From IMG/VR virus record IMGVR_UViG_2698536536_000002: a stretch of 24,758 bases of DNA; one strand, 5' to 3'. Shown one piece after another: positions 8,874-22,045 of this stretch. This DNA is from a virus. Lineage: Duplodnaviria > Heunggongvirae > Uroviricota > Caudoviricetes. Every line of letters starts with the position of its first letter. Position 1 is the stretch's first letter. The notes beneath the pieces are model-generated. The model had not been told where the DNA came from, did no database searches, and saw only the letters and a list, made by a program, of their open reading frames with translations. The translations under genes were made by a program, and so were the position numbers.

Positions 8874-9140
8874 AGTGACGAGATTAAAGTGCATTAGTTC
8901 AGATGCAAATTGACATTTTGTGGCACAGGGTAGAGCTAGCGTGGTTGTCCGCTTTGTGCCAACAGCGGACATTATGGAAGGTCAGAGTTAAAGATTAAAA
9001 TGGGATGCTGTGTGTTTTCTCCAGGTTTTGCTCTATACCTTTCGGGATACTCCACCGACAGAATACGAAAATCAACATTATCAACGGCTCGAAGTGTCTA
9101 GATTATCCATGGCAATTCATGGGAAATCCCATCCAACGGC

Positions 9141-10538
9141 TTATGCTTCATGTTGCTTTTTGAGATCGCTTCTAGCATAGCTCCACTCAATAATGTTGTC
9201 GGGTCGTTGCTGATCGAAAAGGATACGGGATTCAATACCATTACCTAAAAAGCTGGTATTCCCATCTACGTAAGAAGCTATCCCTTGTGAACCAACACGA
9301 AGAATATTTTCTAATGGCTGCTTTGTTCTTGCTGCATCGCTAAGGAGATATAAACCCGGGTACGTTTTGTTAGCACGGTGAAAAAAAAGTTCATTGTCAA
9401 AACACATGACGATGATTATTTGTCCCGACATGAGATCGGAGAGCATTTCAGTTGGCAGATGCAAACTCATAAATGGTCGAGACAAAGGGTCAAAGAATGA
9501 ATCATTTATATTCACAACAGGGCTTTTTATACCGAGACTATCCATCCATCCATTGAAGGCAACAAAGCCCATTTCAGAATCACGGTACATACCTAAGAAC
9601 AAACATTCATCAATAGTATCAATTGCCCAATTTTTTCCTCCGCGAATAATCTCCCACATTTTAACTAAGCGGTGGGTATAAAATTCAGACGGATGATCTA
9701 TCTCATTGATTTTAACTTTAGACTGATGAAAGTTGTCAAAGCCCTCGCCAGTATTAATCGCCTCCAGAACATTCATGCCACGAATGATTTGCCTTTTTAT
9801 GCGATTAAATTGCTTAACATCATTATCAGGCATATTGTTAATGAAGTTTTCTTCAAAGTGCGGACATTCTGAGATAACAGAAAATTCAGCAGCTTCATAA
9901 AGCTCATTATTCTTTTCACCTGTTTTAACTTCCACGAGCTGGAAGCCATCCAGTAGATTAAAGGTGACTAAATCTCCCACATGAACAAATGTGCTCATGT
10001 CAGAGACAATCGCTACGGAGTGTTTGTCCTGGTTGATAAGATCGGCTGCGACCATAGAATCAATTATGTTATCTTCTGATAGATTGTCATTGCTTGCATT
10101 AATAGGTAAACGCCGCAAACTAGAGTGTTCTTCATCAAGAATGCTCCAAATTATTGAGTCAATACAACGGCGAAGAATAAGAATTTCAAATTTTTTTAAA
10201 CTTATTTCATCAATACACTTTTCTTTATTTTCTTTATCCTTGTTTCGATGGTGCTCTTTTTTTTCAGTTTCCAATCTTTTTATATCTCTCAGCCGAATAA
10301 TAATCTCAAAAGATATGATTTTTTGTGAGTCTTTCCAATTTTTGAGACAGGTTTCATACTCTGCAAGAAAATCCTCATCATTGGAAGGTAGTTCTTGAAT
10401 TGGATTCCCTCCCCTTATCATTTTGGCAAGTGCATGCATTAAAGATACATAATGAGGTGATAAAATTGTCCAAAACTTCCTAAACGGTTTGTACTTTTCA
10501 AGAAAAGTTGACTCATCAGTATAATTCATCATAACCAA
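9141..10538 (-). CDS. Hypothetical 465-aa protein, possible PD-(D/E)xK-type nuclease; downstream partner of the AbiH-like gene
   Basis: Long AT-rich ORF with GAGG RBS. Central motif …AIVSDMSTFVHVGDLVTFNLLDGFQLVEVKTGEK… fits the D…(D/E)xK pattern of restriction-like nucleases (inference only). Co-oriented 83 bp downstream of the AbiH-like gene. Confidence 0.7.
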   Translation of the reverse strand: MVMMNYTDESTFLEKYKPFRKFWTILSPHYVSLMHALAKMIRGGNPIQELPSNDEDFLAEYETCLKNWKDSQKIISFEIIIRLRDIKRLETEKKEHHRNKDKENKEKCIDEISLKKFEILILRRCIDSIIWSILDEEHSSLRRLPINASNDNLSEDNIIDSMVAADLINQDKHSVAIVSDMSTFVHVGDLVTFNLLDGFQLVEVKTGEKNNELYEAAEFSVISECPHFEENFINNMPDNDVKQFNRIKRQIIRGMNVLEAINTGEGFDNFHQSKVKINEIDHPSEFYTHRLVKMWEIIRGGKNWAIDTIDECLFLGMYRDSEMGFVAFNGWMDSLGIKSPVVNINDSFFDPLSRPFMSLHLPTEMLSDLMSGQIIIVMCFDNELFFHRANKTYPGLYLLSDAARTKQPLENILRVGSQGIASYVDGNTSFLGNGIESRILFDQQRPDNIIEWSYARSDLKKQHEA

Positions 10539-10621
10539 ACCTCATTCCTCTTATCTATTTTCCTCAAGGTATAAAATACCAGCCTTTTTTACATAATTAT
10601 AGTTATAATATGAAGTCTCAT

Positions 10622-11491
10622 TCAGATATCTTCATACTGTACGTAAGAAATATTTGAGCCTCTGATACCATAATCTTCTAAACTGCCTGATTTTTTCTCA
10701 CCTCTATATAAAGCAACTATCCATCGAGCATTTTCTTGGATGCTTTTATTTATTTCAGTAAAGTATTCACCGTCAACTTCGGCGAGCGAGTGGCCTAAAA
10801 CGATGACCTCGTCCACATTTTTAAGCGATGAGAAAAAAACGTTTTCTTCTTTAATTATGTCTTCGCTGGGCTTGAATGTATTACCGAAGTATTCGTTTAT
10901 TCTGTCGTATGCCTCTGCTATTCTTGTATCTTGATCCGGTCCTATATATGGATTTAGTGACTTTTCCACCCTAAAACTATGACCAAGTATGAGATCGTCA
11001 TCGTAACTACAATTGCCGTGAATATGTATGATTTGCTCGTCTGGAACGGCATAGATCTGCTGCAAGGTATTTGTATAATTAAATGAAAAATAGATGCTTT
11101 CTCTTGGTATGGGCGGGATGTATTGCTTAGGATTGTAAGCATCGGCTATGTTAATCCCTTTAACCCAATCAGCGAATTGCTCCTTCAAACGAGCTGACAG
11201 CATTTGTGTGATTTTATTTACTTCATATTGGTAATCGTGATGATAAGCATCGCTCCAATCATCGGTATTGTATGAAGCCAAAAATATCTCACTGTTTTGA
11301 AGGATAAGCTCATAATCAATTTCACCTAAAGCATTTTCTAACTCATTCCACTCGTCCCCAGCAGGAATGTATTCTTCTATCGCGTCATATAGATCTTGGT
11401 CATTTTTTTCTACATACGACTTAAAGTGCTTGTATCCTGTTGGTAAGCCATGACGCATGTCAAATCCATTTCCTATTATGTAAAGCCTCAT
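10622..11491 (-). CDS. AbiH-like abortive-infection family protein
   Basis: From the ATG at 11491 (AAGGGA RBS) the product begins MRLYIIGNGFDMRHGLPTGYKHF…, which matches the N-terminal signature I associate with AbiH-family proteins. AT-rich codon usage. The track's longer ORF begins at 11542. Confidence 0.6.
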   Translation of the reverse strand: MRLYIIGNGFDMRHGLPTGYKHFKSYVEKNDQDLYDAIEEYIPAGDEWNELENALGEIDYELILQNSEIFLASYNTDDWSDAYHHDYQYEVNKITQMLSARLKEQFADWVKGINIADAYNPKQYIPPIPRESIYFSFNYTNTLQQIYAVPDEQIIHIHGNCSYDDDLILGHSFRVEKSLNPYIGPDQDTRIAEAYDRINEYFGNTFKPSEDIIKEENVFFSSLKNVDEVIVLGHSLAEVDGEYFTEINKSIQENARWIVALYRGEKKSGSLEDYGIRGSNISYVQYEDI

Positions 11492-11807
11492 TGTTTTTCC
11501 CTTAGTCGAATTGTATAAAAATACTAACATGGCCTGCTCCACGTTGACTACTATCCCCTCCTTTGAGTAATGCCTTCATCAGATGTAACAACATTTGCGA
11601 GCTTCCACAGTTCGCTCAAAGCGGACTAGAAGGTTAGCTTGCGTCGGACTTGGCGTATTTAAAGAAGTGCTGGTGGAGACTGGTTGTTGTGTTCCATTTC
11701 TACAGAACAAAATCACAGAAACTATACCCAATAGTTATATTGAATCAATGATGAGACAGCCTCATATTTATCAGGACTGGTGTACGTCCAATACAGGAGG
11801 TTGTCGT

Positions 11808-11897
11808 GCTGGTTCTCAAATGTGCGCTAGCTATTGCGGCTGTAATGGCAATTTATTGTCTTGCTGTTGTTCTTACGGATCGCCTTTCTGATTGATT
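11808..11897 (+). CDS. Candidate 29-aa hydrophobic peptide (type I toxin-like / degenerate hok-like)
   Basis: GTG at 11808 sits 7 nt after a perfect AGGAGG (11795-11800). Product MLVLKCALAIAAVMAIYCLAVVLTDRLSD is a single predicted TM helix. Below the ORF-track size cutoff. Confidence 0.3.
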
Positions 11898-12106
11898 TTA
11901 TATTGGCGAGGTGACGTGAGTTAAGTAGAATTGCTGCGGGTGCTTGAGGCTATCTGCCTCAGGCATGAACACCAAAGGCAGATAGAGAAAAGCCCCAGTT
12001 AACATTACGCGTCCTGCAAGACGCTTAACATTAATCTGAGGCCAATTTCATGCTAGACACATGTAGGTTAGCCTCTTACGTGCCGAAAGGCAAGGAGAAG
12101 CAGGCT

Positions 12107-12262
12107 ATGAAGCAGCAAAAGGCGATGTTAATCGCCCTGATCGTCATCTGTTTAACCGTCATAGTGACGGCACTGGTAACGAGGAAAGACCTCTGCGAGG
12201 TACGAATCCGAACCGGCCAGACGGAGGTCGCTGTCTTCACAGCTTACGAACCTGAGGAGTAA
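12107..12262 (+). CDS. hokD: Hok/Gef-family type I toxin (HokD/RelF-like)
   Basis: 51-aa product MKQQKAMLIALIVICLTVIVTALVTRKDLCEVRIRTGQTEVAVFTAYEPEE matches the remembered HokD/RelF sequence. AAGGAG RBS at 12092-12097. Flanked by a 10-bp-stem hairpin upstream (11950-11985) and a 9-bp hairpin (12270-12291) plus terminator downstream. Confidence 0.85.
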   Translation: MKQQKAMLIALIVICLTVIVTALVTRKDLCEVRIRTGQTEVAVFTAYEPEE

Positions 12263-15387: not shown

Positions 15388-15463
15388 ATTCTGCTCCCGG
15401 CCCTTTAGCTCAGTGGTGAGAGCGAGCGACTCATAATCGCCAGGTCGCTGGTTCAAATCCAGC
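15388..15463 (+). tRNA. tRNA with CAU anticodon (tRNA-Ile2/ileZ-like, or Met)
   Basis: 76-nt cloverleaf drawn by hand: acceptor GGCCCTT/AAGGGCC, D-stem GCTC/GAGC, anticodon loop CTCATAA, T-stem GCTGG/CCAGC, T-loop TTCAAAT, 3' ACCA. Confidence 0.85.
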
Positions 15464-15564
15464 AAGGGCCACCATCACAAACCGCCATTAGCTTATCAGG
15501 AAGAGCAGACGACACGATAACAGGGTTGTTGGTGCGGGGGCGGGTCCCCGATGGCGGTCCATTA

Positions 15565-20442: not shown

Positions 20443-21731
20443 GTAACGTTTTTCTACCTAATACAATGATGGGCACTCTATGTTACAAAAGAGTTTATGA
20501 GTTCTTCGAAGAGCCTCGCTTCTTTTCAGTTGAAAATGAAGTTAGTACACTTTTTATCGTTTACTGGATTGGTGAGGATGATGAATGTGATAGTTGGTTT
20601 ATCATACCAATTTCTCCAGGGCGATTAGAGTTGATTGAAAGAAAAAGAATATGTATCCGTGATGCTTTGATTAATCAGGAGCAAAACTTTTTCTATGAAG
20701 CCCATATACCATACGATCGTACAGGCAAAGTGACTTGGCTGAGTAAAAACTTGGTTGATATATTTGAAATACCTTTGCCTGTTTCTGAACTATATATAAG
20801 TTCGGTAGTTCCAGTAATGCCAAATGGTAAACTGGGCGAGGCTATTACTTACTCAACTCATGAGATCCATTTAGAAAAAAGCTCAAAGAAAAGTGCAAAA
20901 AATTTGGTTTTAAGTCATGTGTCAAACGTATGCGACAGATTCAGCGATCTTTATGACAGAATGCTGGAGATGGCAAAGTGCAAAGATAAATTACGTCCTG
21001 TCGATGCGCGGCCTGGTTCCTTTATCATTTCTTTTAAAGCTGAGAAATTACATTCCTTTGAAGACACTTTTAAAGAATTAAGCAGGCTGATAGAACTTAG
21101 AGCTGATATTATTCCTTTTGTTTTCGAAAAGGGTATTGATGTTCCAGCTTTGACAGATCTCTTACAATCCATAGTTGAAACCGGAACGAATATGGAACTC
21201 AAAAGCAACCAGACAGGTGAATTAGCTTTTGTTATTACAAAAGCTGGTGCTGAGTTCTATTTAAAAAAATTATCACGTCTTTCTACCTCATTGGTTGGAG
21301 GGCATCAAATACCTCAAGCAGATGTCCTCGAGACAGTTTATAAATTAGTGGAAATTGTTTGGAGTGGCGAACCACTTACTCCTATTAATACTGGTTTGCA
21401 AGATAGACATATCTACTATTATAAGCATGCAGCTAAAGTTTTGGGATTACTTGATAGCTTTGGTAATGTCACAACGTCTGGTCAACAACTCGTACAAAGT
21501 GATGAGATGACTAGACATAAAATTGCAGCGAGAAAATTTGAAGTGAGTCATGTGGGATGGGCTTGGATAAATTGGGCCAGTGTTGAACATTTATCCCAAA
21601 TTGATCCTGACAGCGCTTTAGACTTTCTATTGGAGCAATGCCACTCTTTAAGTCGTGATACTATTGAACGACGTGCTACAACTATTAAACACTGGTGCCG
21701 TGAATTGAAAAATTATTATACACCTCTGTAA
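20439..21731 (+). CDS. Hypothetical 430-aa protein (second gene of unknown two-gene cargo operon)
   Basis: Long AT-rich ORF translationally coupled to the upstream gene and followed by an intrinsic terminator. No recognisable catalytic motif by eye. Confidence 0.7.
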   Translation: MSNVFLPNTMMGTLCYKRVYEFFEEPRFFSVENEVSTLFIVYWIGEDDECDSWFIIPISPGRLELIERKRICIRDALINQEQNFFYEAHIPYDRTGKVTWLSKNLVDIFEIPLPVSELYISSVVPVMPNGKLGEAITYSTHEIHLEKSSKKSAKNLVLSHVSNVCDRFSDLYDRMLEMAKCKDKLRPVDARPGSFIISFKAEKLHSFEDTFKELSRLIELRADIIPFVFEKGIDVPALTDLLQSIVETGTNMELKSNQTGELAFVITKAGAEFYLKKLSRLSTSLVGGHQIPQADVLETVYKLVEIVWSGEPLTPINTGLQDRHIYYYKHAAKVLGLLDSFGNVTTSGQQLVQSDEMTRHKIAARKFEVSHVGWAWINWASVEHLSQIDPDSALDFLLEQCHSLSRDTIERRATTIKHWCRELKNYYTPL

Positions 21732-21756
21732 AGGATAATTTTCGTAGTTAACAATG

Positions 21757-21784
21757 AACCACTGACGTCTGTCGGTGGTTTTTT
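21757..21784 (+). terminator. Rho-independent terminator after the two-gene cargo operon
   Basis: AACCACTGAC-GTCT-GTCGGTGGTT hairpin (10-bp stem, one G-U) followed by TTTTTT. Confidence 0.5.
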
Positions 21785-22045
21785 AATAGATAATTTCCCA
21801 CTTATCCACTTGATTTTTGATGGGTCCTCCAAGTGGGGGGCCTGCCACGGGGCGGGAGCGTCGCGGAAAAAGGCTAGTTTTTGCATTTCCATGGTGGCGG
21901 CAGCATGTTTGGTAATTTATTGATAATTAAAAGTTATTTCTCTTTTCAGCTGTACAATATTTTTTTCTCCCTGTCATTAGACTAGTTTGCAATTAATTGA
22001 AATATATAAATAAACCTGATTTTCACCTGCCAGATGGAGTTGCTT

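Follow-up and report, generated by a model that had tools for sequence, protein, structure and literature searches.

An AbiH-family gene and an unannotated neighbour as a mobile, separable cassette in an Escherichia coli lambdoid prophage

Genomic setting of the two-gene block

The window analysed here, the whole 24,758-nucleotide stretch of IMG/VR virus record IMGVR_UViG_2698536536_000002, matched, at 100% identity, a lambdoid prophage of the Qin/Rac type that is integrated beside rspB in Escherichia coli MDR_56. It contains two adjacent genes on the minus strand, the first of which (gene 1) encodes a member of the AbiH abortive-infection family and the second of which (gene 2) encodes a protein of an unannotated family. 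Comparison with related loci indicated that the two genes travel together as a cassette and that relatives of each also occur without the other. Both open reading frames (ORFs) were found where a preliminary description, made from the letters of the window, had placed them, with 83 bp between them. That of gene 1 spans 10622..11542 (306 amino acids (aa), GTG start) and that of gene 2 spans 9141..10538 (465 aa, TTG start); the peptide quoted in that description, VHVGDLVTFNLLDGFQLVEVKTG, is present. The likelier start codons are ATG 11491 for gene 1 (289 aa) and ATG 10532 for gene 2 (463 aa), which give a spacer of 89 bp. Neither ORF is a product of chance, since both have many full-length homologs and evolve under purifying selection.

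The block is AT-rich, with a GC content of 0.34-0.38 across 9501-11500 against 0.47-0.54 on both sides, and it is antisense to the surrounding cro, replication, nin and Q genes, which run in the early-right direction; both properties had been described for it before. In the MDR_56 prophage it lies between replication genes (replisome organiser, DUF977) and hokD. The corresponding interval of the window (8874-12106), bounded by the DUF977 gene (end 8873) and hokD (12107-12262), is a hotspot whose cargo differs between phages. The cargo of phage Tritos at this hotspot is a 444-aa protein matching PDC-S15, a PADLOC defence candidate (E=1e-98); that of phage Evi consists of a regulator and an acetyltransferase. 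The hotspot flanks were detected in 1724 of 5426 complete E. coli genomes and the AbiH block in 65, at identities of at least 99%. The earlier view of the block as horizontally acquired cargo is upheld by this difference in distribution and by the exchange of cargo in Tritos and Evi.

Decay of the block was also evident within E. coli. About 50 genomes retain AbiH remnants alone (the 5' 527 nt or 191 nt) with gene 2 gone, and several copies are interrupted by the insertion sequences IS1 or IS3 within AbiH or gene 2. The E. coli copies are almost clonal and are therefore weakly informative on co-conservation of the pair.

Gene 1 is a member of the AbiH family

The AbiH-like character of gene 1, first proposed from its N-terminus, was borne out by hidden Markov model (HMM) searches. 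Gene 1 matched Pfam PF14253 with 233.3 bits (E=6.6e-69; curated cut-off 30.9 bits), residues 3-259 aligning to profile positions 1-258 of 260 and hence over the full length of the family. The PADLOC AbiH profile was matched in part (E=1.3e-27) and phrog_19951 end to end (1-288 of 288), while a profile search against PDB sequences gave no match. Translation from ATG 11491 begins with MRLYIIGNGFD, is preceded 8 nt upstream by GGGA, which resembles a ribosome-binding site, and coincides with the first Pfam and PHROG profile positions; the same start is used in RefSeq on plasmid pMS-37c. Other upstream starts are 11530 (RefSeq, 302 aa) and 11542 (GTG, 306 aa).

Residues G7, N8, G9, F10, D11, H14, N138, H158, G159 and H171 were invariant in 22 homologs of 42-92% identity, and the GNGFD, N and H-G columns may map onto the motifs of a Sir2-type NAD site. 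The ratio of nonsynonymous to synonymous substitution rates (dN/dS) of gene 1 was 0.13-0.24. Judged by these profile matches, gene 1 is a genuine AbiH-family protein, and this half of the pair is ordinary, belonging to a known family and being already annotated in RefSeq. AbiH has been described as a system of one gene whose product is predicted (HHpred, AlphaFold) to adopt a Sir2-like fold, and NAD+ depletion was suggested as the mechanism (PMC13064643). In Vibrio one AbiH gene by itself conferred 5.7 logs of protection (bioRxiv 10.1101/2024.06.14.598830). Viral contig L134 (3405-5307) carries two same-strand tandem ORFs of the AbiH family (E=3.8e-114 and 2.2e-61), so that AbiH occurs in duplicated pairs as well.

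Gene 2 represents a large unannotated family with an invariant putative active site

Gene 2 is held in RefSeq with the same start, ATG 10532, which is preceded 7 nt upstream by GAGG, again resembling a ribosome-binding site. The protein was unmatched in Pfam, PADLOC, NCBIfam, PHROGs and PDB sequences, and none of the component models of PADLOC-DB v2.0.0 (2023), candidate families included, matched it. A word-indexed search returned 48 close clusters, exclusively from Enterobacterales and Aeromonas. An exhaustive HMM search extended the family to at least 681 representatives (clusters at 50% identity) at E<=1e-3, 500 of them reaching 1e-10, with lengths of 430-500 aa in nearly every one. Scans of 55 diverse members at Pfam thresholds of E<=0.01 and E<=10 gave no Pfam or PADLOC family in common. 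On the strength of the 681 representatives and this want of a common family, the gene 2 family is both large and unannotated. The dN/dS of gene 2 was 0.21-0.32.

Across 113 homologs of 18-60% identity, D178, D187, E201, K203, G205, R244, Q248 and P444 were invariant, and they held likewise in the 55-sequence subset. An AlphaFold2 model of gene 2 (predicted local distance difference test 80.6, predicted template modelling score 0.82) was composed of three parts. The first is a long N-terminal helical hairpin (H52-96 and H100-131). The second comprises H153-167, the strands E172-176, E188-192 and E196-200, and H206-221; D187 opens the second of these strands and E201-x-K203 closes the third. The last is a C-terminal alpha/beta domain. 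The predicted order of alpha-beta-beta-beta-alpha in the second part fits a PD-(D/E)xK core.

The preliminary description had proposed a PD-(D/E)xK nuclease in this central region. The motif itself stands, being invariant in the 113 homologs and carried by secondary-structure elements in a fitting order; a nuclease fold or profile was not recovered. Three fold searches with gene 2 returned neither a nuclease nor a solved restriction-endonuclease-like fold, and an HMM of the family alignment (A2) gave no match among PDB sequences. The nuclease assignment is accordingly predicted from the model and the motif and is unconfirmed.

The invariant site could instead belong to a defence-associated protein of another kind, such as a different hydrolase, a ligand-binding protein or a scaffold, an explanation that overlaps those weighed further below. 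It would account for the failure of the three fold searches and all profile searches to link gene 2 to any nuclease family, and for the invariance of R244, Q248 and P444 outside the classic motif. However, the spacing D-x13-E-x-K is canonical, and the four residues concerned, acidic or basic, do not vary in any of the 113 sequences, the most distant of which are 18% identical. They also have the canonical placement, on successive predicted strands with helices on either side. A non-nuclease function of the site is considered quite unlikely.

Some members of the family have additional regions. Proteins P0162, P0165, P0166 and P0182 (669-690 aa) contain an extra N-terminal stretch of approximately 250 aa, which was rejected as an informative fusion, Pfam and PADLOC searches being without a match. 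A 485-aa clade (P0028, P0031, P0034 and others; columns 470-500 of alignment A1) ends in a Lys/Arg-rich tail of approximately 25 residues, which is absent from the E. coli gene 2 protein and independent of the presence or absence of a partner gene.

Spread and limits of the cassette

In Klebsiella pneumoniae, AbiH was followed by gene 2 in 8 of 8 places, with aa identities of 88.6% for AbiH and 85.5% for gene 2. These places lie in another lambdoid prophage, whose replication genes are of the DnaT and lambda-P kinds. Nucleotide identity to window positions 8946-11626 was 88.5% over 2753 nt (blastn). The pair was also present on SSU5-like phage-plasmids of Enterobacter, Klebsiella and Raoultella. 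As judged from these alignments, the cassette travels as a unit among at least three backbones, namely Qin/Rac-type prophages, lambda-P/DnaT prophages and SSU5-like phage-plasmids. Gaps between the two genes ranged from 83 to 93 bp in all AbiH and gene 2 pairs. Synonymous divergence (dS) was alike in the paired genes (0.18-0.25), as expected under co-inheritance, and dN/dS was 0.17-0.32 in both, both genes being under purifying selection.

The left edge of the cassette, at approximately 11627, is common to five contexts, the alignment beginning at the same point in E. coli, Klebsiella, viral contig L122 and two Morganellaceae loci. The spacer is kept in the Klebsiella and Enterobacter cassettes, and a terminator-like site was not found in it. 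In the AbiH leader a strong sigma-70 consensus was not found, and promoter-like sites were no commoner than in shuffled sequence. Since promoter and terminator scans of the cassette gave no enrichment over shuffles, the two genes are described here as probably, rather than demonstrably, co-transcribed.

At the cassette ends, an imperfect inverted repeat of 36 nt (75% complementary) pairs the right end with 11604-11639, and its right arm carries a GTCCGC...GCGGAC hairpin. It was rejected as a mobility signature, as the pair was not recovered in the Klebsiella cassette or the AbiH-only loci; in Klebsiella a similar hairpin is located on the left flank instead and the inverted-repeat pair is not conserved. 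For the same reason the right-end hairpin is read as probably of the terminator type. The coordinates of all features are collected in Table 1.

Table 1. Coordinates of the cassette and its parts in the window.
Feature	Position	Strand	Basis or remark
Whole mobile two-gene cassette, ~2.7 kb	8946..11626	-	Homology limits between E. coli and Klebsiella prophages
AbiH-module leader/promoter region	11492..11627	-	Cassette boundary common to all contexts
Gene 1, AbiH-family, 289 aa	10622..11491	-	Pfam, PADLOC and PHROG profiles
Intergenic spacer, 89 bp	10533..10621	-	Holds the junction where AbiH-only homology ends, ~10595-10612
Gene 2, 463 aa, unannotated family	9141..10532	-	RefSeq WP_000982358.1, 'hypothetical protein'
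Codons of the D178 / G186-D187 / E201-x-K203 motif, putative PD-(D/E)xK-like active site	9924..10001	-	Invariance in homologs
Gene 2 module, ~1.6-kb indel relative to the L122 AbiH-only cassette	9011..10611	-	L122 alignment
Hairpin arm at the right cassette end	8934..8969		Imperfect inverted repeat with 11604-11639

Upstream of AbiH in the Klebsiella loci (L095-L102, 1503-3751) are a 453-aa HD/HD_assoc (dGTPase-like) gene and an unannotated 237-aa gene, both divergent from it, which are candidates for additional defence cargo in this hotspot. Elsewhere in the window, ordinary prophage features were noted: the mokD/hokD toxin ORFs at 12050-12262, a tRNA-Met at approximately 15404-15474 (according to the annotation of the identical RefSeq prophage), and a second AT-rich stretch at 20501-22000 (GC 0.37-0.40) around gnsB and small hypothetical genes upstream of the terminase.

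AbiH occurs without gene 2

A fixed two-gene arrangement, as had been put forward for the pair, did not hold up across related loci. In Morganellaceae, an AbiH 91% identical to gene 1 was solitary in 8 of 8 places representing at least three contexts, and gene 2 was not found at these loci by tblastn. Homology to the cassette extends there from the left edge at 11627 to 27 bp past the AbiH stop codon, and the solitary gene has a dN/dS of 0.13. Viral contig L122 encodes AbiH (89%) without gene 2, followed directly by 53 bp of the right end of the cassette. It aligns to window positions 10612-11627 and then to 8958-9010 with nothing between, the break in homology falling 10 bp past the AbiH stop. 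Gene 2 is thus a discrete indel of approximately 1.6 kb, because AbiH is joined in L122 directly to the cassette end; flanking repeats or a target-site signature at this indel were not found.

Nor is the pair co-conserved at greater distances. Among 75 AbiH-bearing viral loci, gene 2 was confined to those with an AbiH at least 89% identical, and it was absent from all sampled AbiH loci at 62% identity or below (more than 50). Relatives of gene 2 occur in turn alone or with other partners.

Gene 2 relatives are paired with diverse effector-type genes

The neighbourhoods of approximately 60 further gene 2 loci were surveyed. Wherever gene 2 was at least 85% identical, AbiH preceded it. Relatives at 44-56% identity were mostly located behind an Abi_2 (HEPN) gene (15 loci, the majority with gaps of 16-40 bp), and relatives at 26-31% behind an NDT/TIR-like gene (gaps of 2-12 bp) or a Mrr_cat gene. 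A relative in Dickeya lies behind a DUF3644 protein with a restriction-endonuclease-like domain, which corresponds to the PADLOC single-gene candidate PDC-S19, and one distant relative is overlapped by 4 nt by a downstream TIR_2 gene. The set of partners therefore comprises AbiH, Abi_2, DUF3644, Mrr_cat, TIR_2 and NDT/TIR-like genes, with gaps of -4 to 93 bp. Gabija-like, nSTAND, KAP and Mrr genes were other neighbours of gene 2 or AbiH loci. The Tritos cargo, the DUF3644 partner and the genes upstream in Morganella were tested as distant relatives of gene 2, AbiH or Abi_2 and were not related.

The pairing with Abi_2 spans two clades, between which gene 2 is 44-47% and Abi_2 56-58% identical, and this adjacency is old, having been kept across that divergence. 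Gene 2 relatives were also found on their own: at the convergent junction of the tail regions of P2-like prophages, in a Serratia integrative and conjugative element (ICE), in Yersinia, in Aeromonas beside Gabija-like genes, directly after integrases, and on Rahnella and Ewingella plasmids. Others lie within a tra region or beside MobA. Proteins 79-81% identical to one another are solitary in Serratia and Aeromonas and paired with DUF3644 in Dickeya, and the solitary ones keep every invariant residue.

This range of positions bears on the idea that gene 2 has no immune role and is a selfish or housekeeping function of mobile elements that inserts between or behind other cargo genes and merely hitch-hikes beside AbiH. 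It might, for example, be a nuclease of the homing or recombination type, or a factor that processes DNA. Its relatives do occupy many unrelated positions in mobile elements (between P2-like tail operons, in the tra region, after integrases and beside MobA), gene 2 behaves as a discrete 1.6-kb indel, and it is missing from PADLOC 2023, candidate families included. Several observations point the other way. The indel is without flanking repeats or a target-site signature, and a search of 50,697 deposited phage genomes yielded no relative of gene 2, which would be odd for a phage homing element. Furthermore, defence effectors are enriched among its close neighbours, and its pairing with Abi_2 is of ancient date. 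A protein of 463 aa with three structural regions is also unlike known free-standing homing endonucleases. A non-immune role is accordingly regarded as improbable.

Two loci types in the survey deserve separate mention. In Morganella morganii (L017, 2856-6458), a gene 2 relative is located behind two same-strand unannotated genes of 367 aa and 315 aa, neither of which matched Pfam or PADLOC. The 367-aa protein contains a D...EVK-like motif, DYRLVLKDGKQIFVEVKN, and the 315-aa protein a hydrophobic N-terminal segment; the locus may be a three-gene variant. A scan of species-representative genomes added one useful locus, the other two being tiny contigs. These, L005 (583 bp, 'Streptomyces plumbiresistens') and L006 (245 bp, 'Vogesella urethralis', coverage 0.85), hold fragments 86-90% identical to E. 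coli gene 2 and are probably contamination.

Interpretation of the pair

The preferred reading, to which a probability of roughly 0.45 is given, is that AbiH and gene 2 are two separable, autonomous defence modules that have been combined repeatedly, with gene 2 probably a nuclease of the PD-(D/E)xK type. The cassette would be defence cargo expressed in the lysogen, antisense to the early-right operon in the replication-hokD hotspot of a lambdoid prophage. Its first module would be a self-sufficient AbiH, Sir2-like according to the literature, acting through NAD+ depletion and abortive infection. The second would most likely be a metal-dependent PD-(D/E)xK-type nuclease, as the invariant D-D-ExK site suggests, with the N-terminal helical hairpin packed on the core and the C-terminal alpha/beta domain following it. 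This module would be portable, standing alone in prophages, ICEs and plasmids and being placed repeatedly beside different suicide-effector genes. Each gene would defend on its own, and in the E. coli cassette the two would probably be co-transcribed. Their co-inheritance could then result from layered or synergistic protection, in which an abortive NADase or RNase module acts alongside one that attacks nucleic acids.

The comparisons establish the membership of gene 1 in its family, the pattern of conservation in gene 2, the limits of the cassette, the separability of its genes, the variety of partners, co-divergence and purifying selection. Certain points weigh against the preferred reading. 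The defence phenotype of the cassette and of the gene 2 family is one that we infer, as are the nuclease activity, co-transcription and synergy of the cassette genes. The deep retention of the Abi_2 pairing and the consistent, tight same-strand layout suggest more than chance proximity and agree better with a true two-component system. In addition, the independent pairing events number approximately seven, so that the bias in gene order and orientation is statistically not strong.

The chief alternative is an obligate or semi-obligate system of two components. Gene 2 would then supply the conserved part, as sensor, regulator or co-effector, and would control the adjacent gene, an interchangeable toxic effector, much as in other defence systems with a conserved core and variable effectors. 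Such a system would explain why at least six unrelated effector-type partners lie directly adjacent on the same strand with gaps of -4 to 93 bp, why Abi_2 and gene 2 have deeply co-diverged, and why the AbiH cassette moved intact among three backbones with no terminator found in its spacer. A junction just past the AbiH stop is likewise expected if an effector is exchanged before a retained partner. Yet AbiH at 89-91% identity survives alone under purifying selection, and gene 2 relatives at 79-81% survive alone with all invariant residues. AbiH and Abi_2 members elsewhere are single-gene systems and DUF3644 is a single-gene candidate in PADLOC, while an invariant, catalytic-looking D-D-ExK site would be unusual in a sensor. 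On this evidence a two-component system is rated as somewhat unlikely.

A related proposal can be offered only tentatively and is held to be somewhat unlikely: that gene 2 defines a new, widespread defence family (at least 681 clusters) serving as a universal nuclease or sensor partner for swappable suicide effectors (Sir2-like AbiH, HEPN Abi_2, TIR, Mrr and DUF3644), the E. coli cassette having arisen by a recent swap from Abi_2 to AbiH before a gene 2 that was kept. Abi proteins of the classic 'single-gene' type could, in that case, be recruited into a two-component system as its effector modules.

Comparison with known defence systems

Gene 1 resembles AbiH of Lactococcus lactis (abiH, PF14253) in its full profile match, in GNGFD, N138 and H158-G159, and in its carriage on mobile elements. 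Its sequence is distant from the Lactococcus prototype and, whereas the described system consists of one gene, a 463-aa gene follows it here within a narrow enterobacterial clade.

Lamassu, Avs and CBASS consist of a conserved core combined with interchangeable effectors. The gene 2 family likewise occurs in tight same-strand pairs with Sir2-like, HEPN, TIR, Mrr and DUF3644 partners. The partners here are, however, complete genes that are autonomous elsewhere rather than domains, and both sides are also found solitary. Unlike those cores, gene 2 has neither an NTPase nor a known sensor domain, and it is unrelated to them in sequence (no PADLOC match).

Defence nucleases of the PD-(D/E)xK type include Shedu SduA/DUF4263, HamA, Cap4 and Mrr. 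Gene 2 shares with them a D...D-x13-E-x-K arrangement on predicted strands flanked by helices, and it too is multi-domain cargo of mobile elements. It differs in having no profile match or PDB structural match to them, and its putative core lies mid-protein, between the long helical hairpin and the unassigned C-terminal domain. The cassette is also comparable to the defence genes stacked in prophage moron hotspots, being AT-rich, antisense to lytic transcription and situated in a variable hotspot, but the adjacency of Abi_2 and gene 2 has been kept over far more divergence than is expected of casual neighbours.

Implications for prophage-borne defence

Searches of PADLOC 2023, Pfam, NCBIfam, PHROGs and the searchable literature turned up neither the pairing of AbiH with gene 2 nor the gene 2 family; a prior description may exist, for instance in defence databases newer than 2023. 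More interesting as a lead than a fixed AbiH pair is the promiscuity with which members of the gene 2 family associate with abortive-infection effectors. The family is large and unannotated, has a catalytic-looking invariant site, and recurs in operon-like pairs with abortive-infection effectors of at least five unrelated families. Natural AbiH-only, gene-2-only and paired variants at approximately 90% identity provide a ready genetic test of the readings set out above. If gene 2 defends alone, it would be a new defence gene in common pathogens (E. coli, Klebsiella and Enterobacter). If it works with its neighbours, 'one-gene' Abi proteins would be exchangeable effectors of a two-part system, a reading that bears on how defence diversifies through the swapping of modules.

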